Part shown: positions 13,286-56,865 of the stretch, one piece after another
How the letters are laid out: every line of letters begins with the position of its first letter
Numbering within the stretch: position 1 is the stretch's first letter
Source: an uncultured Gammaproteobacteria bacterium
GTDB taxonomy: Bacteria > Patescibacteriota > Microgenomatia > CAZETR01 > Amesbacteraceae
Length of the DNA: 64,000 nt
Direction of reading: 5' to 3'
Assembly: GCA_964518565.1 (NCBI GenBank)
Contig: CAZFGX010000001.1
Coordinates: 460,470 to 524,469 of the forward strand
Position numbers and translations under genes: made by a program
The notes under the pieces: generated by a model
Told to the model about the DNA's origin: nothing
Database searches by the model: none
What the model saw: only the letters and a program-made list of their open reading frames with translations

Positions 13286-13315
13286 AATAGCTTCGATCGC
13301 GTATAATAGGATCAG

Positions 13316-13441
13316 ATCACTTAACAATTTGCCCCTGTAGCTCAATAGCGACCGAGTCTGCGAGGGAGATATACCTGGAGACCCTCGCGCACAAGCGACG
13401 AGGAAGAGGTCGCCAGGTATGGATCAGATATTTAACAATTT
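13316..13441 (+). repeat. partial 5' duplication of tRNA-Arg (10 nt of upstream sequence plus tRNA nt 1-16) interrupted in the D-loop by an 83-nt structured insert, then tRNA nt 17-24
   Basis: ttaacaatttgcccctgtagctcaat occurs twice (13321- and 13432-); the insert contains hairpin gcgaggg...ccctcgc and an outer gcgacc/ggtcgc stem. Confidence 0.7.
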
Positions 13442-13514
13442 GCCCCTGTAGCTCAATGGATCAGAGCGTCGGTCTTCGGAACCGTAGATGAGGGTTCGAT
13501 TCCTTCCAGGGGCA
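13442..13514 (+). tRNA. tRNA-Arg (anticodon read as TCG)
   Basis: Acceptor gcccctg/caggggc, anticodon loop ctTCGga, T-loop ttcgatt; no CCA encoded. Confidence 0.7.
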
Positions 13515-13543
13515 CAGATTTGTCTTATCACGATAAATAGATT

Positions 13544-18391: not shown

Positions 18392-18425
18392 GCGGGTATA
18401 GCTCAATGGTAGAGCACCAGTTTTC
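18392..18425 (+). repeat. duplicated 5' portion (nt 1-34, through the anticodon 5' stem and loop start) of tRNA-Gly(TCC)
   Basis: gcgggtatagctcaatggtagagcaccagttttc is identical to the start of the full tRNA at 18745. Confidence 0.8.
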
Positions 18426-18487
18426 TCCGCCAATAGTTTCACAATTTGGCGGATCCGCCTGAATGCAAAGCTTTCGGCGGACAAACT

Positions 18488-18754
18488 ATGTATTACACAT
18501 ACGTACTACATTGTGAGTCTTTAAAAAAGCAAGTTTTTTATACCGGGTATTGTGAAGATCTAAAAAACAGAATAGAAGAACATAAATCTAAAAAAGTACA
18601 GACTACTAAAGTATTTGATAAAATCACTTTGGTCTACTATGAAGCCTGTTTAAATAAAACAGATGCTCGTAAACGAGAAATTCAGTTAAAAACTGGCTTT
18701 GGTAGAGGATATTTGAAAAATAGATTAAAATCCTATTTACAAATGCGGGTATAG
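18488..18754 (+). CDS. GIY-YIG nuclease superfamily protein (UPF0213/YhbQ-like)
   Basis: YTYVLHCES...FYTGYCEDLKNRIEEH...LVYYEA...ARKREIQLK; the last 10 nt overlap the 5' end of tRNA-Gly. Confidence 0.75.
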   Translation: MYYTYVLHCESLKKQVFYTGYCEDLKNRIEEHKSKKVQTTKVFDKITLVYYEACLNKTDARKREIQLKTGFGRGYLKNRLKSYLQMRV

Positions 18755-18818
18755 CTCAATGGTAGAGCACCAGTTTTCCAAACTGGCTACAGGGGTCCGA
18801 TTCCCCTTACCCGCTCCA
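18745..18818 (+). tRNA. tRNA-Gly (anticodon TCC)
   Basis: Acceptor gcgggta/tacccgc, anticodon loop ttTCCaa, CCA encoded. Confidence 0.85.
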
Positions 18819-24106: not shown

Positions 24107-24147
24107 ACCGTATATAGTTATACAGTATTTTTAGCCCTCAAAACTAG

Positions 24148-24222
24148 TCGGGGATAGAGGACTCGAACCTCCGACCTCACGCTCCCAAAGCGCGCGCTCT
24201 AAGCCAACTGAGCTAATCCCCG
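24148..24222 (-). tRNA. tRNA-Pro (anticodon TGG)
   Basis: Minus-strand cloverleaf cggggat...atccccg, anticodon loop ttTGGga. Confidence 0.8.
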
Positions 24223-28650: not shown

Positions 28651-29400
28651 ATGTCAGTCGCACATTACGATGATCCAGAATTTTCCTACGAAAAATATTG
28701 GCACAATCGTGCCTACGAACACGCAGCCGAAGAAATAGCACTAACAAAACTCCTCAAAGGCAAAAAATTTACAAATGCCGTAGATATCGGTGGGGGATAT
28801 GGCCGTTTGTCTACTGTTCTACAACGATATGCCAACCATGTAACATTGGTCGAACCCTCTCAAAAACAGCGCACAATAGCCAAACGTTTTCTAAAAGATT
28901 TTCCTCAAATCACTATTAAGTCAGGCCTTTCAGACAAAACTCAACTAGAAGACAATTCTCAGGACTTAGCCATGATGGTTCGGGTCACCCATCATTTACC
29001 CGACCTCAAGCCCACTTTGGCTGAACTGTCTCGTGTTCTCAAGCCCAAAGGGCTACTTATTTTAGAGGTTGCCAATTCTCGCCATTTCAAAGCCTGGATA
29101 AAAAGTTTGGCCACAGGTCAACCTATTTTGCCTATGCCCGTAGAGCGTCGCAGTAGCGCCAATATTCGCAAAAATACTATTGCATTTGTAAACCATCATC
29201 CTGGTACAGTCTCTAAACTTTTAGCTCAATCTGGCTTCAAAATATCTCGATCATTATCGGTATCTAATTTTCGTTCACCTCAATTAAAAAAATTCCTACC
29301 AAAATCAATCCTACTAAACCTGGAGTCCGCTACCCAAACCCCCTTAGCCAGAATAAACTTTGGTCCCAGTATCTTTCTTTTGTGTCACAAGTCTACCTAA
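28651..29400 (+). CDS. class I SAM-dependent methyltransferase
   Basis: AVDIGGGYGRLS (motif I), LAMMVRVTHHLPD. Confidence 0.75.
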   Translation: MSVAHYDDPEFSYEKYWHNRAYEHAAEEIALTKLLKGKKFTNAVDIGGGYGRLSTVLQRYANHVTLVEPSQKQRTIAKRFLKDFPQITIKSGLSDKTQLEDNSQDLAMMVRVTHHLPDLKPTLAELSRVLKPKGLLILEVANSRHFKAWIKSLATGQPILPMPVERRSSANIRKNTIAFVNHHPGTVSKLLAQSGFKISRSLSVSNFRSPQLKKFLPKSILLNLESATQTPLARINFGPSIFLLCHKST

Positions 29401-29414
29401 TAACAAGGCTCAAA

Positions 29415-29443
29415 TTGACAAACCAAACACCCCATAGTACAAT
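29415..29443 (+). promoter_or_regulatory. near-consensus sigma70-type promoter (TTGACA-17 nt-TACAAT)
   Basis: ttgaca aaccaaacaccccatag tacaat. Confidence 0.45.
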
Positions 29444-29449
29444 ATATGT

Positions 29450-29526
29450 AGGTTTCGTGGCTTGGGCTAAAACCCAGGCTGTGGGATTTTAAAGCCTCGA
29501 CATTGGGCAGGAGTCGGGGCTTTTTT
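29450..29526 (+). ncRNA. candidate small RNA of about 75 nt, between the consensus promoter and a hairpin plus T6 terminator
   Basis: Internal hairpin cttgggctaaaacccagg and terminator gcctcgac...gtcggggc tttttt; no ORF. Confidence 0.3.
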
Positions 29527-29534
29527 AGTTGTAT

Positions 29535-30092
29535 TCAATCTTCATATCCCATATTTTCTTCATCTGGATCTGTCAAAATTTTGCTTCGAGTAGATCTCTT
29601 AGGTAAACGGACAGCGCGAGGTCTATCCCAAGGTGCATCAGAAACTACAACCTTGTCTTCTTTAGTTATGTGTGGTCCGGGTTTTAAAACGTAATCCAAA
29701 TGTGTCGAAAATGCTTGAATTTGTTTTTGCCGCTGCATCCTCAATACACCCAACCCACCTCGTTGTTCGGTGGACTCACTAGTCAAATATTCATTTACAA
29801 TTTGGTCATTGTCCTTATGAAGCTTCGCCAATGTTTGCCTACATTCAACTTCAGAAATTTTCGGAGAAAGAGCTACAGACCATGGTAATTCCGATTTGTG
29901 TTCCAGTTGTCTACCCAAACAATACGCCTTTGCCAAAGCCGAATATAAATAGTTGCGATAGACTGTCCGCATGATTTTTTTCTCATGTGGTTTATTTAAC
30001 ATTTGTCGTAAATTGTCTACCTCTTTCCATTGATCACTTAATTCATGCCTAAGCCGCACTTCTTCAGACTCTGGGGCAACCGAAACCTCCAT
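29535..30092 (-). CDS. hypothetical protein
   Basis: 185-aa charged ORF. Confidence 0.4.
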   Translation of the reverse strand: MEVSVAPESEEVRLRHELSDQWKEVDNLRQMLNKPHEKKIMRTVYRNYLYSALAKAYCLGRQLEHKSELPWSVALSPKISEVECRQTLAKLHKDNDQIVNEYLTSESTEQRGGLGVLRMQRQKQIQAFSTHLDYVLKPGPHITKEDKVVVSDAPWDRPRAVRLPKRSTRSKILTDPDEENMGYED

Positions 30093-30127
30093 TAAAAAAC
30101 TATAACATATGAGATAATACTAATATT

Positions 30128-30413
30128 GGGCTGGTGGTGAAATTGGTATACACGCAGGTTTTATAACGAGCGAAGTACAACGAAGCGAGATATATGAAAG
30201 GATCCAAGAGCGAATGCGATTGGGAGGTTTCCTTTCATATGAACCTGTGGGAAAATAGGCTGGTAAATCTGGGCTGGTGGTGAAATTGGTATACACGCAG
30301 GTTTTATAACGAGCGAAGTACAACGAAGCGAGATATATGAAAGGATCCAAGAGCGAATGCGATTGGGAGGTTTCCTTTCATATGAACCTGTGGGAAAATA
30401 GGCTGGTAAATCT
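30128..30413 (+). repeat. two perfect tandem 143-nt repeats; each is tRNA-Leu(TAG) nt 1-35, then a 74-nt structured insert, then the anticodon 3' stem, then 22 nt of non-tRNA sequence
   Basis: Units 30128-30270 and 30271-30413 are identical; the insert contains a 12-bp perfect stem catatgaaagga/tcctttcatatg. Confidence 0.85.
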
Positions 30414-30496
30414 GGGCTGGTGGTGAAATTGGTATACACGCAGGTTTTAGGAACCTGTCTCCAAAAGAGGTGGAGGTTCGAGTCCTCTCCAGCCCA
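30414..30496 (+). tRNA. tRNA-Leu (anticodon TAG)
   Basis: gggctggtggtgaaattggtatacacgcaggttTAGgaacctg...; long variable arm. Confidence 0.8.
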
Positions 30497-30506
30497 CAAA
30501 AAAAAC

Positions 30507-30547
30507 GCCCCTTTGGTTGGATACTCCAACCTCCGGGGCTTTGTATT
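30507..30547 (+). terminator. rho-independent terminator-like hairpin after tRNA-Leu
   Basis: gcccc tttggttggatactccaacctcc ggggc, then T-rich tract. Confidence 0.45.
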
Positions 30548-30581
30548 AAATTGTTTATCGATTCAAAACCTTTCGGTTTCA

Positions 30582-30806
30582 CTATTTCACTACTGAAATA
30601 GAGCTTTCTGAATATGGAATATTCAAATGGATCAGCGCTGCGCGAAATTTCATTTCGGCGTCAACATCTGGAAAACTCACTTCGGTATTAAACCCATTCG
30701 ACTTCTGATAAGCCATCGGTATTGCCTTTTTTTCCTCCAATCGCTTTTTCCACATCTCCATCATTCCGTCTTGCACTTTTAACGTATCCAAAACAAAAAA
30801 AACCAT
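30582..30806 (-). CDS. hypothetical small protein
   Basis: 74-aa ORF. Confidence 0.3.
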   Translation of the reverse strand: MVFFVLDTLKVQDGMMEMWKKRLEEKKAIPMAYQKSNGFNTEVSFPDVDAEMKFRAALIHLNIPYSESSISVVK

Positions 30807-30968
30807 AAATCCTCCAAAAAACTAGAATCGATTGTCAAACAGCGTTTGTAAACACAGCGCAATAAATGCGAAATGCACAAATGTAACTGTGCTTAAAAAC
30901 TAAGACTAGTTATAACACAAAATAAGACAAATTACAACTATAGGCCTATATTTGAGGCTAGATTAGCA

Positions 30969-32438
30969 TTGATCTCACTTGAATATGGGTATATCATAGC
31001 CAAAGATATGTCAACCCTTTTTTCTGCTGTTCGCCTGGCGGATATAGCCGATGTGGCTATTGTCGCCATTATTATCTACAACATCTTTATCCTTTTTAAA
31101 CAAACCCGTTCATACCTAATTTTTGTCGGCATTAGTCTCATGGCCGCTCTGTATGCCTGTGCAAAAATCTTTAATCTCTATTTGACCACACTCGCCTTAC
31201 AAAGCTTTTTTAGTGTTCTATTTGTCATTTTAGTGGTAATTTTCCAAAACGAACTCCGACGATTCTTTGAGTTTATTGCCTTACTTGGTACGCGTAGAGT
31301 AAAACTCAAAACCTCTATCACCCTTCCCATTCACGTCTCAGAACTCGTCCAGGCCAGTGCCCATTTAGCTCACGAAAAAATTGGCGCTCTCATTGTCATT
31401 CAGGGTAAAGATTCCCTCGATCGTTTTATCCAAGGTGGCCAACTCCTAGATGGCGTTATTTCCGAAAATGTTTTAGCTAGTATTTTTGACCCTAATTCAG
31501 CCGGTCACGACGGAGCTGTAGTCATAAATCAAAACCGCATCACTCAATTTGGTGCCCAACTGCCTCTGTCTACAAATTTCAAAGAAATTGGCAAGCATGG
31601 TACACGACACAGTGCAGCCGTAGGACTGTCAGAACGAACTGACGCACTCTGTATTATTGTGTCTGAAGAAAAAGGTACCATATCACTTGCCCGAGATGGC
31701 AAACTCAAAACACTTACAACTGCTGAAGATTTAGAAAAAGACTTGGGGAAATTCTTACGCGACAAACATTTGATAGCCAACAAAAATTTTGCCCAGGATC
31801 TGATTCAAAAAAATTCTAAGCTCAAACTCATTTCAGCGCTTTGTGCCATTGGACTTTGGCTTACAGTATCTGCCCGGACAGAAACCATTCAAAAAGATTT
31901 TTCTTTACCAATCACCATCAAAAATCTACCTGAAAACACCTTGATCGAAGATAGCAGTCCAAGAATGCTCACCGTTTCATTACAAGGTAGGGGAGAAGTT
32001 GCGTTTTCCAACATAGATGCTTCATCCTTAGAAATCAGTCTCGATGCAGACAATCTAAAAAGCGGCCTAAACACCGTCAACATCCCCACCTCCGCTATCA
32101 AGCGTCCTCTAAATCTAAATCTCGTAAGTGTTCAACCATCCACTGTCTATCTATTGGTAAAAAAATATAAACTCGTCAAGGTTCCAGTCAATCTTAAAAC
32201 AAAAAATTTACCCAAAAAACTAACTATCTCTAGTACCACAATTACTCCTTCAGAAATTGAATTTTGGTTGCCAGAAGAAGCTACAAAACCCGACACATTA
32301 GATACAAAAACTATTGATTTCAGTTCACTTACTGACTCCACGATTATTGAAACCGAAGCCATTATGCCCCCAGGCGCAAAACTAAAAAAAACCGACGATA
32401 GTAAAATCACCATTGCTATTACTATCGATAAAAAATAA
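30969..32438 (+). CDS. cdaA: diadenylate cyclase CdaA fused to a C-terminal YbbR-like (CdaR-type) region
   Basis: Three N-terminal TM helices; DAC domain GTRHSAAVGLSERTDALCIIVSEEKGTISLARDGK; then another TM and a roughly 200-aa YbbR-like domain in one uninterrupted frame. Confidence 0.8.
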   Translation: MISLEYGYIIAKDMSTLFSAVRLADIADVAIVAIIIYNIFILFKQTRSYLIFVGISLMAALYACAKIFNLYLTTLALQSFFSVLFVILVVIFQNELRRFFEFIALLGTRRVKLKTSITLPIHVSELVQASAHLAHEKIGALIVIQGKDSLDRFIQGGQLLDGVISENVLASIFDPNSAGHDGAVVINQNRITQFGAQLPLSTNFKEIGKHGTRHSAAVGLSERTDALCIIVSEEKGTISLARDGKLKTLTTAEDLEKDLGKFLRDKHLIANKNFAQDLIQKNSKLKLISALCAIGLWLTVSARTETIQKDFSLPITIKNLPENTLIEDSSPRMLTVSLQGRGEVAFSNIDASSLEISLDADNLKSGLNTVNIPTSAIKRPLNLNLVSVQPSTVYLLVKKYKLVKVPVNLKTKNLPKKLTISSTTITPSEIEFWLPEEATKPDTLDTKTIDFSSLTDSTIIETEAIMPPGAKLKKTDDSKITIAITIDKK

Positions 32439-54032: not shown

Positions 54033-55139
54033 CTACATCTCTCCTTTCACAAAACGGGCGATGTCTCCCGGTCTGGATGCATAAGCCTGAGCAAATTCAT
54101 AAGAAATTTTCCCACTTTTAACAAGTCTTGCCAAAGTACTTTCCAATGTAGTCATTCCCATATCACCAGATGTCAAAATTATATTGTCCAACATATGTGT
54201 TTTACCTTCGCGCACGGCCGTCTTTACCGCGGGAGTTCCCAACATGACTTCATATGCCACTGCACGACCAGAGGAAATCATCGGCACTAATCGTTGAGAA
54301 AATACTGCTTGCAAAGTGTTCGACAATTGCAATCTGACTTGAGGTTGCTGGTTCTCTGGAAAAACATCCACAATACGATCAATAGTCTGTGAAGCAGAAT
54401 TTGTATGTAATGTCGCAAATACCAAATGACCAGTTTCAGCAATGGTCAATGCCGCCGCAATCGTCTCAAAATCACGCATTTCCCCAATCAAGACCACGTC
54501 AGGGTCTTCACGCAAAACTGAACGCAATGCAATATCCCACGAATGCGTATCGTTATGTACTTCACGCTGAGAAACAATTGCTCGTGCCGATGTATACATA
54601 TACTCAATCGGATCCTCAATTGTCACCATATGTACCCGTCGATTTTGATTGATTTCATCCAAAATTGCCGCCAATGTAGTAGATTTTCCTTGACCAGTAG
54701 GTCCTGTGACAAGTACAAATCCTTGTTTCATGTTGGCAAATTCATGACAAATACCCGGCAAACCTAATTCGTCAATTTTAGGAATACGTACTGGAATCAA
54801 ACGAAAACTCGCTGCCAAAGACCCTTTTTGAAAATACGCATTTACGCGAAAACGAGCCGCCTCAGCCAAAGAAAAAGAAAAATCCAACTCTTTATTCACT
54901 TCCAATACCTGTCTTTGATCAGCAGCAACTACCGGTTCCATTAATTGGCTTATGGTGTCATGCAGCAAAACATTTTCTCCTGGTACTGGCAACAATGCTC
55001 CATCAATACGCACAATTGGCGGAGACCCAACCAACAAATGTAAATCCGAAGCATTTTTATCGACTACATATTGCAACAGTTGTGAGATATTCATGAGCAG
55101 TACATTTATATTAAAGCACCCCTTATTCTTGCGCAACAC
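54033..55139 (-). CDS. pilT: type IV pilus retraction ATPase PilT
   Basis: Walker A GPTGQGKST, His box, LVFATLHTNSA. Confidence 0.85.
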   Translation of the reverse strand: MLRKNKGCFNINVLLMNISQLLQYVVDKNASDLHLLVGSPPIVRIDGALLPVPGENVLLHDTISQLMEPVVAADQRQVLEVNKELDFSFSLAEAARFRVNAYFQKGSLAASFRLIPVRIPKIDELGLPGICHEFANMKQGFVLVTGPTGQGKSTTLAAILDEINQNRRVHMVTIEDPIEYMYTSARAIVSQREVHNDTHSWDIALRSVLREDPDVVLIGEMRDFETIAAALTIAETGHLVFATLHTNSASQTIDRIVDVFPENQQPQVRLQLSNTLQAVFSQRLVPMISSGRAVAYEVMLGTPAVKTAVREGKTHMLDNIILTSGDMGMTTLESTLARLVKSGKISYEFAQAYASRPGDIARFVKGEM

Positions 55140-56865
55140 GCAAGACCTCTTCCATAGTAGTGATCCCTTCTACCACCTTCAAGAAGCCATCCTGTTTCAT
55201 AGTAATCATCCCTTCAGAGACTGCTTGATTTTCAATAGTAGAAGCAGGGGAGTGTTCTAAAATAAGTCGACCGATCTTTTCTGATACAGGCAACACTTCA
55301 AATACGCCCACCCGACCTTTATACCCCGTTCCACCACAAATCGTACATCCTTGACCTTTATATAATTCCACGGGTTTGTCCGACGTGACAGTCCACAATT
55401 TACCTAATGCATTTTGTATCTCTGCTATGACTTCTGGTACTGGTTGATACGCCGATTTGCAATTGCTACAAATTTTGCGCACCACCCGCTGAGCCACAAT
55501 CGCCGTAATAGTAGAAGCCAATAAATATGGCTCAGCTTTCATATCCAACAAACGTGGCAAAGCTCCAGCTGCAGAATTAGTATGCAAAGTAGAAAACACC
55601 AAATGGCCAGTCAACGATGCCTGAACCGCCAACTCAGCCGTCTCTTCATCCCGGACTTCTCCCACCATAATAATATTTGGATCTTGTCGCAAAAACGATC
55701 GCAAACCTGAAGCAAATGTCAAACCCGCCTGGGGATTAATTTGTACTTGATTTACTCCAGGAATTTGATATTCCACCGGATCTTCCAAGGTCACGACATT
55801 TACCTTGACAGTACTAATTCTCGACAAGACAGCATACAAAGTCGTAGTTTTACCTGAACCCGTTGGTCCTGTCACTAAAATAATTCCATGTGGCCGTGTA
55901 ATAGCTTCTTCAAGATTAGCCAATGCTCGACCACGAAAACCTAGCTCAGTCAACGTGGGCACTACACTTGTTTTCTTTAAAAGCCGCATAACGATTTTTT
56001 CCCCATGCACAGTAGGCAAACTAGATACACGCAAATCCACCTGTTCTTCGTCTGTTTCAAAATTAAACCGACCATCTTGTGGCACTCGCTTTTCGTCAAT
56101 TTTCATATCCGACAAAATTTTGATGCGCGAAGTCAACGCGTCATGTATCTTTTTTGGCAAAATCAACTTTTCATGCAAAATACCATCAATACGGTATCTG
56201 ACTCGAGTTCGATCTTCCAGAGGCTCAATATGAATATCTGATGCTCGAGATTTAGCCGCAAATTCCAAAATAGTGGTCACGATTTTTGCAATTGGCGCTT
56301 CACGAATCAACTCGTTTACCTTACGAATGTTTACAGTTTTTACCTCCATCGGACCACCCACACCATTTTCTTTCAAAGCAGCAGTAACCTCAGCCGATAA
56401 GCTCTGTTGATAACGAGCTGCAATAGCTGCATCCACTTCCCCAGGTAGTGCTGCAAATGATTTTACGCGAAGACCAGTCTTTTTCTCTAAAAATTCGATG
56501 GCTGCCAAATCCAATGGGTTAGACATTGCTACTTGTAACTCACCATTTTTAGGATCGTAATCAAATGGAATTACTCGCAAACGTTCCGCCACAGCTCGAT
56601 CTACATATCCTAAAGCAATAGGGGATAACGCTTTATCCGCCAGAGAAATAAAGGGGACATTCAAATACTCAGCTTTTGCTTGCATCAAATCATCTCCACT
56701 GATCAATTTTTGCTCCACCAACCAATCAGAAATACTCACTCCAGTGTTTACAAATTCTGCTTTTGCTCGATCTGCATCCTGTTGTGTCAATTTCTTTTTC
56801 GTCACCAAAATGCTCAAAATTCCATTTGTCTGATTATCCATGATAGGTACAACCGGGGCAGGCAT
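55123..56865 (-). CDS. pilB: type IV pilus assembly ATPase PilB (GspE family)
   Basis: N-terminal GSPII domain, Walker A GPTGSGKTTT, tetracysteine CSNC...CTIC. Confidence 0.85.
   Translation of the reverse strand: MPAPVVPIMDNQTNGILSILVTKKKLTQQDADRAKAEFVNTGVSISDWLVEQKLISGDDLMQAKAEYLNVPFISLADKALSPIALGYVDRAVAERLRVIPFDYDPKNGELQVAMSNPLDLAAIEFLEKKTGLRVKSFAALPGEVDAAIAARYQQSLSAEVTAALKENGVGGPMEVKTVNIRKVNELIREAPIAKIVTTILEFAAKSRASDIHIEPLEDRTRVRYRIDGILHEKLILPKKIHDALTSRIKILSDMKIDEKRVPQDGRFNFETDEEQVDLRVSSLPTVHGEKIVMRLLKKTSVVPTLTELGFRGRALANLEEAITRPHGIILVTGPTGSGKTTTLYAVLSRISTVKVNVVTLEDPVEYQIPGVNQVQINPQAGLTFASGLRSFLRQDPNIIMVGEVRDEETAELAVQASLTGHLVFSTLHTNSAAGALPRLLDMKAEPYLLASTITAIVAQRVVRKICSNCKSAYQPVPEVIAEIQNALGKLWTVTSDKPVELYKGQGCTICGGTGYKGRVGVFEVLPVSEKIGRLILEHSPASTIENQAVSEGMITMKQDGFLKVVEGITTMEEVLRVAQE

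Follow-up and report, generated by a model that had tools for sequence, protein, structure and literature searches.

Introduction

Partial tRNA genes are known as the scars, or att repeats, of integrated mobile elements (PMC9897764), and in atp6 and cob of fungal mitochondrial DNA free-standing GIY-YIG and LAGLIDADG cassettes carry a duplicate of the end of the gene that they target (PMC6279837). Here we describe a 64,000-nt stretch of contig CAZFGX010000001.1 (assembly GCA_964518565.1, positions 460,470 to 524,469; hereafter the window) from a Patescibacteria genome, in which two perfect 143-nt tandem units, each a cut-off copy of tRNA-Leu(TAG) interrupted by an insert that we call E, stand directly upstream of the intact tRNA-Leu(TAG) gene. 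Organisms of the candidate phyla radiation have tiny genomes, which have been regarded as poor in repeats. An original prediction, made from the DNA letters of the window, had noted the units as pseudo-tRNAs with an insert near the site of archaeal/eukaryal tRNA introns. The intron analogy is wrong, and the real interest of the locus lies in E as a family of elements and in the recurring combination of a partial tRNA copy with an insertion, which we found described neither in Rfam nor in the searchable literature.

The locus resembles both of the systems named above. As in att scars (PMC9897764), a cut-off tRNA copy forms a direct repeat (37 nt) beside an intact gene, and the break falls in the anticodon loop, a classic crossover sublocation. 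The units differ from att scars in that the 5' part is duplicated where usually it is the 3' part, in having 106 nt and not kilobases between the repeats, in lacking an integrase and in that E splits the tRNA parts. As in free-standing homing cassettes (PMC6279837), a partial copy keeps the host gene intact while the displaced copy decays beside it; the likeness extends to an imported, selectively maintained end of pilB at a second E locus (L009) and to a GIY-YIG gene in the cassette position at tRNA-Gly of the window. Unlike such cassettes, the tRNA-Leu units contain no nuclease gene, and the targets are tRNA genes in a bacterial chromosome. Because recombinase and nuclease are missing, because E splits the tRNA parts and because the duplications range from 2 nt to tens of nt, neither frame fits fully.

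Insertion into a tRNA anticodon loop is also a property of bacterial group I introns and of archaeal bulge-helix-bulge (BHB) introns, and the original prediction placed the insertion near the archaeal/eukaryal intron site. This link does not hold, as the break is at 35/36 and not at the canonical 37/38, complete exons are lacking (the 3' exon is incomplete), the fold contains no BHB and no intron or ribozyme of Rfam matches. The core of a group I ribozyme (P3-P9) takes at least ~200 nt, and the insert, with 77 nt, is far below group I size. E differs further from tRNA introns in that it is found in the D loop of tRNA-Arg and in intergenic DNA as well.

With the small repeat elements of bacteria (REP/REPIN, Correia (NEMIS), ERIC, RUP and the IS200/IS605-derived PATEs) E shares a length of 75-80 nt, a stable hairpin, the lack of a gene of its own, a dispersed intergenic distribution after stop or before start codons, and variability at orthologous sites. 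Like the IS200/IS605 derivatives it is without terminal inverted repeats or regular target duplications, and several copies lie 3' of a TTTCAT-like motif. PATEs, which occur in genomes with a Y1 TnpA, have subterminal hairpins at both ends, whereas E has one conserved hairpin; the palindromic hairpin in extragenic positions that is typical of REP, a repeat with a cognate RAYT gene, is present in E but the GTAG head is absent, as is the TA duplication of Correia elements. E is set apart from all these by its low copy number and by its strong association with tRNA and tmRNA genes and with partial target duplications. Dispersed copies that are present or absent at orthologous sites are shared with miniature inverted-repeat transposable elements (MITEs), but the terminal inverted repeats that mark MITEs are not found in E.

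Results and Discussion

Two interrupted copies precede an intact tRNA-Leu gene

Tandem Repeats Finder delimits a perfect array at positions 30127-30449 of the window (period 143, 2.3 copies, 100% matches, no indels), which ends in the intact tRNA-Leu(TAG) and bears out the two identical units of the original prediction. The order is X-Y-X-Y-X-Z, where X is 37 nt (a T plus tRNA nt 1-36), Y is 106 nt and X-Z is the intact gene. A repeat search returned two identical 143-nt copies and three identical 37-nt copies (at 30127, 30270 and 30413), and a 78-nt string of the insert occurs exactly twice in the window against zero occurrences expected. On the plus strand the leftmost cut-off copy, X1, occupies 30127-30163, and its left flank (U, 30093-30126) is unlike the flank of the other X copies. 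It is followed by the first copy of E (30164-30240), which consists of a leader (30164-30191, TAACGAGCGAAG...GCGAGAT) and a 49-nt hairpin (30192-30240), by a tRNA-Leu relic (30241-30263) and by the spacer TAAATC (30264-30269). The second unit repeats this layout with X2 (30270-30306), an E copy of the same sequence (30307-30383) and a second relic with its spacer (30384-30412). Then comes the intact gene (30414-30497; ARAGORN, Rfam 56.5 bits), with a hairpin at 30499-30547 after it.

The head taken from the tRNA is 36 linear nt, equal to standard positions 1-35; the break falls after A35 and one G of the anticodon loop is missing. Between this head and GAACCTGT lie 77 nt (30164-30240), not the 74 nt first counted. 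The inverted repeat within the insert had been read as a perfect 12-bp stem. Its left arm is TATATGAAAGGA (TATATG...) and not CATATGAAAGGA, and therefore the stem is made of 11 Watson-Crick pairs (30192-30202 with 30230-30240) and one T.G (G.U) wobble.

The last 22 nt of each unit had been taken for unrelated sequence. Together with the preceding GAACCTGT they align to the anticodon 3' stem, variable arm and T-stem start of a tRNA-Leu(TAG) of the type found at the related locus L020 (GAACCTGTGGGAAAATAGGC-TGG versus GAACCTGTGGCCTAATAGCCGTGG, p=0.001 against shuffles). Since the 30 nt 3' of the hairpin match tRNA positions 37 to ~60, each unit is made of tRNA 1-35, E, a degenerate tRNA 37 to ~60 (GAACCTGT, an L020-type variable arm and the T-stem TGG) and a short spacer. 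We rejected the 22-nt tail as a copy of the flank U (p=0.88) and as a copy of the region upstream of tRNA-Leu at a second related locus, L019 (p=0.10, not significant); a tRNA relic upstream of the L019 gene was likewise not significant (p=0.69).

The units end at about position 60. The T arm and the acceptor 3' strand are missing as predicted, but the variable arm, also said to be missing, is present in degenerate form. The units are unable to fold into tRNAs, in agreement with the first description of them as non-functional cut-off copies interrupted in the anticodon loop, and they contain no credible open reading frame (ORF), only spurious overlapping ones. The disrupted copies stand directly upstream of an intact gene, so a working tRNA is retained by the cell; this intact tRNA-Leu(TAG) is the same in sequence as its L019 and L020 orthologues, the variable arm excepted.

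The assembly record is a single 1.0-Mb contig. In independent Logan assemblies of SRR29476927 and SRR29476910 the contigs end precisely 30 nt inside the 37-nt repeat, coming from the left as well as from the right. Such a stop is what a k=31 graph produces when a true repeat has two different contexts to its left and two to its right, and therefore the X-Y-X topology, which one, two or more units would give, is genuine.

E is a dispersed structured repeat family

The insert is not private to this locus. It belongs to a dispersed structured family found at unrelated loci in other Patescibacteria genomes, the typical unit being ~77 nt with a ~28-nt leader and a 49-nt hairpin that shows compensatory changes. 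The family search took one genome per species and looked for exact matches to both stem arms with any interior of 20-40 nt. It found 14 places, seven of which, in four genomes, have the same 27-nt interior as the window copy. Homologues of E are at L004 and L010 (two Amesbacteria genomes), at L006, L009, L011 and L016 (metagenome-assembled genome CAZIVL01) and at L017 (CAYHNU01), and they share the leader AGCGAG ... CGAGAT on one side of the hairpin. Two covariance models built from E copies, R1 and R2, recover the homologues at 67-92 bits and score the window copies at tRNA-Leu at 80.6 (R1) and 85.9 (R2) bits. The models also find L020 3817-3895, upstream of tRNA-Leu(TAG), at 61-76 bits. A degenerate E lies directly after tRNA-Pro (L020 118-195, 56 bits) and a diverged one at 13344-13423 of the window (R2 25.3 bits, E=0.002 over the whole 64 kb with filters off). 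In total ~12 copies occupy 10 distinct loci. They are spread over six Patescibacteria genomes, that of the window included, and one genome has at least four of them.

Across nine sequences 97% of the hairpin cells are paired and four pairs show compensatory changes, with one pair seen as C-G, G-C, A-U, U-A and U.G. The observed covariation score was reached by none of 500 shuffles, and slid-partner controls pair in 31-50%. This pattern indicates that the E hairpin is under structural selection. The window copy folds at -20.7 kcal/mol on the plus strand versus -15.8 on the minus strand; the plus strand (window orientation) gives the more stable fold in nine of ten copies, and the wobble pairs are valid on this strand only. 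One hairpin of E is conserved and a second is variable. E has its inverted repeat at one end, as an internal hairpin, to which the other end (AGCGAG...) is not complementary; an AGCGAG-like motif occurs three times in the element. Flanking duplications are an ambiguous AT (2 nt) at L009 and in the window and 10 nt at the L020 tRNA-Pro, with none visible elsewhere. Three to five copies have a TTTCAT-like left flank, a motif that recurs at E's own end.

Only tRNAs pass the Rfam gathering threshold in the window, nothing relevant appears at E<=10 in 29300-31000, and no description of E turned up in Rfam or literature searches. E is apparently an undescribed structured repeat family. As to a match between the insert and a known insertion sequence (IS) or MITE repeat, which would have told against the original prediction, the insert does come close in being a repeat, but it belongs to no described family.

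We rejected the possibility that the hairpin encodes a peptide (MKGNLP...GSFHIS), since compensatory changes in the stem would swap residues for very different ones (C/H/L/P) and the next gene is not in a constant frame with it. A six-frame peptide profile of E searched against 5.8 billion proteins returned the L009 ORF only. A pattern scan of JGI metagenomes for E gave one chance match (L018), no E was found in viral contigs, and BLAST against phages and plasmids gave nothing relevant. Five further loci recovered as CdaA neighbourhoods (L024-L028) show neither synteny nor E.

E lies beside tRNA genes and varies at orthologous sites

Six of the 10 distinct E loci are at most 40 nt from a tRNA or tmRNA gene or fragment, and at all six E is co-oriented with it (tRNA-Leu and tRNA-Arg in the window, tRNA-Leu and tRNA-Pro at L020, tRNA-Thr at L010, tmRNA at L006). 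Read on the strand opposite to the window's plus strand, E often occupies the entire gap between one gene's stop and the next gene's start, namely from rnhB to an ASCH-like gene (L004), from pilB to pilT (L009) and from mreB to a gene of 555 amino acids (L017); the copy at L011 is upstream of fusA. At L004 (7112-7117) the stop codon of rnhB (TGA) comes from the first bases of the E hairpin (ATATGA), E overlapping the end of the coding sequence. No transposase, integrase or reverse transcriptase was found within 3 kb of any E copy.

Three sites can be compared in filled and empty form. At the pilB stop/pilT start junction the window (55100-55200, minus strand) has neither E nor a duplicated pilB 3' end, and the orthologous junction at L009 is filled by E; the pilB-pilT-pilC regions of the two are 75% identical in amino acids (tblastx). 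At the 3' end of tRNA-Pro(TGG) the window (24147-24222, minus strand, ..ATCCCCGAC|TAGTTT) is again empty, and the orthologous L020 site holds the degenerate E flanked by a 10-nt duplication, TATCCCCGAC. At tRNA-Leu, E is present in the window and at L020 and absent at L019.

The last comparison bears on the age of the arrangement. L019 is a Logan contig with CdaA 49% identical to that of the window and L020 is from GCA_034680565.1, with CdaA 48% identical; in all three the order is methyltransferase / conserved small-RNA-like element with terminator / tRNA-Leu(TAG) / cdaA / CAP / dinB. L020 reads E, GAACCTGTGGGAAAATAG, 14 nt and tRNA-Leu(TAG), and its E has no 5' half before it. The window units and L020 agree in all 18 nt of GAACCTGTGGGAAAATAG, and the neighbouring spacer has diverged. 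Because L020, a distant syntenic relative, keeps E and the same relic upstream of tRNA-Leu(TAG), the disrupted copy predates the split of lineages whose CdaA proteins are 48% identical; an alternative to old age is that the E-bearing copy was exchanged between the two lineages. The perfect identity of the units had been read as recent duplication or homogenisation, and this is supported for the two-fold amplification. It does not extend to the arrangement as a whole: by comparison with L020, only the amplification appears recent and the arrangement itself old. Special to the window are the retained or regenerated 5' half, the segment with ORF185 (see below) to the left and the perfect two-fold amplification. 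The joint from X to Y, GGTTTTA|TAACGAG, resembles the joint between the terminator T-run and E at L020, CTTTTTTA|ATGGCGAG, and short TTTTA homology may have mediated deletion or duplication events here.

Partial gene copies recur beside E

A scan for flanking fragments of all tRNA genes in the window found cut-off 5' copies upstream of three of 12, which suggests that the process is common and makes it testable on public genomes. At tRNA-Arg(TCG) a fragment array on the plus strand (13331-13441) is made of tRNA nt 1-16 (13331-13346), the diverged E (13347-13420; fold z=-4.15), nt 17-24, GGATCAGA (13421-13428), and a copy of the upstream flank (13429-13441), and the real gene follows at 13442-13515. 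The architecture is that of the tRNA-Leu units, with the break in the D loop instead. The region 13302-13515 (plus strand) may also be read as a short tandem array in which GGATCAGA, the flank and tRNA nt 1-16 occur twice, the first copy containing a GC-rich, E-like hairpin element and a consensus TATAAT (13302-13307) standing just before the array.

The third case in the window is tRNA-Gly(TCC) (18392-18818, plus strand), where tRNA nt 1-34 (18392-18425) are followed by a 62-nt double hairpin, by a GIY-YIG ORF (18488-18754) and by the intact tRNA-Gly (18745-18818). The 5' fragment breaks in the anticodon, and the end of the ORF overlaps the intact gene. The fold at this site has z=-5.1. The ORF encodes an 88-amino-acid GIY-YIG nuclease (Pfam PF01541, E=1.9e-10) which consists of the catalytic domain alone, a DNA-binding domain not being evident; an exact look-up found no record of the protein with that start codon. 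We do not claim AAACTGGCT inside the ORF as a tRNA-Gly relic, as its estimated chance expectation is ~0.08 and it lies within a conserved protein motif.

Two further fragments were seen in relatives. At L020 (1868-1920) the tRNA-Val(TAC) gene is preceded, at a distance of 38 nt, by a 5' fragment of itself of 15-19 nt, and at L025 (1107-1350) the last 19 nt of tRNA-Cys recur 150 nt downstream, so that the two copies enclose a hairpin-rich insert.

The duplication beside E at L009 concerns a protein gene. Its order is pilB ... A-B-A-E-B', with duplications of pilB of 75 nt and a perfect 15 nt. Between B and B', the duplicated pilB 3' end, 25% of bases differ but only 2 of 25 residues do, and each is as distant from the window orthologue as from the other. 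One copy must therefore have evolved as a working gene elsewhere, which points to a pilB end imported by recombination and not drifted in place. Partial target duplications thus accompany E at tRNA-Leu, tRNA-Arg, pilB and tRNA-Pro (10 nt). In three cases the insertion point of E is 8-24 nt from the edge of the duplicated segment, a spacing that hints at a coupling of insertion and duplication, possibly in a single event.

A mobile element and its alternatives

E exists as a family with a selected hairpin, varies between presence and absence at orthologous sites, is enriched at tRNA and tmRNA genes and is found together with partial target duplications. Wherever it lies within the sequence of a gene, this sequence is a redundant partial copy that has an intact one beside it. 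On balance we lean towards reading E as non-autonomous and either mobile or recombinogenic, tolerated in redundant partial copies only; unequal recombination between the 37-nt repeats would account for its recent amplification in tandem. Such an element would prefer tRNA and tmRNA genes and gene boundaries; inside a gene it would survive only if a partial duplication leaves an intact copy, a pattern that is seen also at tRNA-Arg in the window and at pilB of L009. The segment composed of E, the relic and the first 36 nt of the tRNA would then have been amplified recently to two perfect copies in the window lineage, the likely route being unequal recombination or slippage between the 37-nt tRNA 5' repeats. 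An enzyme that moves E is a part of this reading that we infer. If correct, the candidate phyla radiation would have a new source of genome change in a structured repeat family that homes on tRNA genes and moves along with partial gene duplications; such a family would also be a cause of tRNA mis-annotation and a possible mark of horizontal exchange between distant lineages.

Several observations weigh against mobility. As transposase, integrase and reverse transcriptase are missing within 3 kb of any copy, the case for mobility comes entirely from the comparison of filled with empty sites. The lack of terminal inverted repeats and the inconsistent duplications (2 nt AT, 10 nt, tens of nt) fit no standard transposition chemistry. 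The conservation of E and the adjoining 18 nt at an orthologous site across a deep divergence suggests a local function over selfish DNA. Three X copies that are 100% identical within an old arrangement call for gene conversion that is still going on, or for an X-E junction that was re-created recently. Finally, only about a dozen copies of E are known, the JGI scan having given one chance match and the viral, phage and plasmid searches nothing.

We also entertain, as a tentative and rather unlikely extension, that E and the small GIY-YIG cassette belong to an undescribed class of Patescibacteria mobile elements which inserts into the D loop or anticodon loop of tRNA genes and preserves the essential gene by supplying or generating a second copy of its 5' part with a promoter, E being the gene-less form moved in trans. 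If true, this would amount to a DNA-level substitute for splicing, an 'intronless homing' into tRNA genes.

It is possible, but in our view unlikely, that E is a functional cis-acting RNA or DNA module, either an RNase III-type processing or stabilising hairpin or a leader co-transcribed with tRNAs and operon mRNAs. The array would then be a tandem duplication of the upstream control region of tRNA-Leu together with the first 36 nt of the gene, joined at TTTTA microhomology between the anticodon loop and the T-run upstream of E. The selected hairpin would have this explanation, as would the preserved E and next 18 nt at L020 amid diverged spacer, the more stable plus-strand fold in nine of ten copies with its strand-specific wobbles, and the co-orientation with the adjacent tRNA or tmRNA at six of six loci. 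E also fills the stop-to-start gap on the other strand at L004, L009 and L017, and the X-Y junction is similar to that of L020. A function tied to its setting is difficult to reconcile with a near-identical hairpin beside genes as unrelated as fusA, pilT, mreB/PBP, rnhB and tRNAs that is absent at orthologous sites in relatives. A plain upstream duplication does not explain the precisely placed tRNA pieces on both sides of E at two tRNA genes, and the promoter scan found no canonical promoter in E. Should the hairpin nonetheless be a functional RNA, it would be a candidate for a new RNA family with a link to the expression of tRNAs and operons.

We consider it quite unlikely that the locus is a site-specific integration scar, left when an element or free-standing nuclease cassette with its own tRNA 5' part displaced the resident 5' half and later lost its gene by deletion, so that E is its conserved end; amplification of the scar would have followed. 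Neither an integrase nor a nuclease gene is in or near any E copy, and E splits the tRNA parts, which remain contiguous around the crossover in integrase scars. Partial tRNA genes are nevertheless what integrated elements usually leave behind (PMC9897764), free-standing GIY-YIG and LAGLIDADG genes of fungal mitochondrial DNA have partial gene duplications at their flanks (PMC6279837), and the window itself has the same topology in tRNA-Gly nt 1-34, the GIY-YIG ORF and intact tRNA-Gly, although E has no sequence similarity to the leader of that cassette. The imported pilB end at L009 (25% of bases, 2 of 25 residues different) would fit such a history, and the three AGCGAG-like motifs in E recall recombinase arm sites. 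A homing nuclease, on the other hand, would recut the restored tRNA, which is identical to the target sequence.

Very unlikely is an assembly artefact in which the assembler passed twice through a single X-Y-X loop of the genome, as the 100% identity of the units and a 37-nt anchor too short for short-read graphs to count loop passes (the Logan contigs stop at the repeat) would permit: the single 1.0-Mb contig points to long reads or to careful finishing, the window has comparable partial tRNA duplications in unique context at other places, and the disrupted pseudo-tRNA with its E persists even with one unit.

Promoters and neighbouring features

In each unit the relic contains a possible extended -10 element (TGnGAAAAT), which precedes the next tRNA 5' end by ~15 nt. 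The promoter of tRNA-Leu could thereby come from the array, and transcripts would then have long leaders to be removed by RNase P. A weak minus-strand site within E (cTGACg-16-TATATC), present in about half of the copies, fails the criteria of the promoter scan and was rejected. A minus-strand promoter-like site for ORF185 has its predicted -35 (TTCACC) within X1. ORF185 (29535-30092, minus strand) is an orphan gene divergent from the array and is missing from the syntenic relatives L019 and L020; among 5.8 billion proteins it has no homologue except itself, and it has no match in Pfam, PHROG or NCBIfam.

The neighbours of the tRNA-Leu array are a methyltransferase, orphan ORFs, CdaA, a CAP-domain protein and DinB, with no recombinase among them. 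CdaA, just downstream of the array, has its best foreign matches at 49% identity in Patescibacteria, in WWE3- and Amesbacteria-like lineages. CAZIVL01, the genome of L006, L009, L011 and L016, is labelled 'uncultured Gammaproteobacteria', but its pilB, pilT and pilC are 62-75% identical to those of the window and its gene content looks Patescibacteria-like; the label is probably wrong. Downstream of the displaced pilB fragment at L009 (4640-4700, minus-strand reading) the spacer contains agatccttcgcttttgctcaggatgac, a second kind of small repeat beside E, which resembles a palindromic repeat widespread in many bacterial metagenomes.

Between the methyltransferase and tRNA-Leu lies a conserved small-RNA-like gene of ~85 nt (window 29415-29527, plus strand; L019 1575-1680; L020 3725-3822). 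It matches nothing in Rfam at E<=10, and it has a near-consensus promoter (TTGACA-17-TACAAT, 11 of 12 positions), an intrinsic terminator and a hairpin with compensatory changes across the three genomes.

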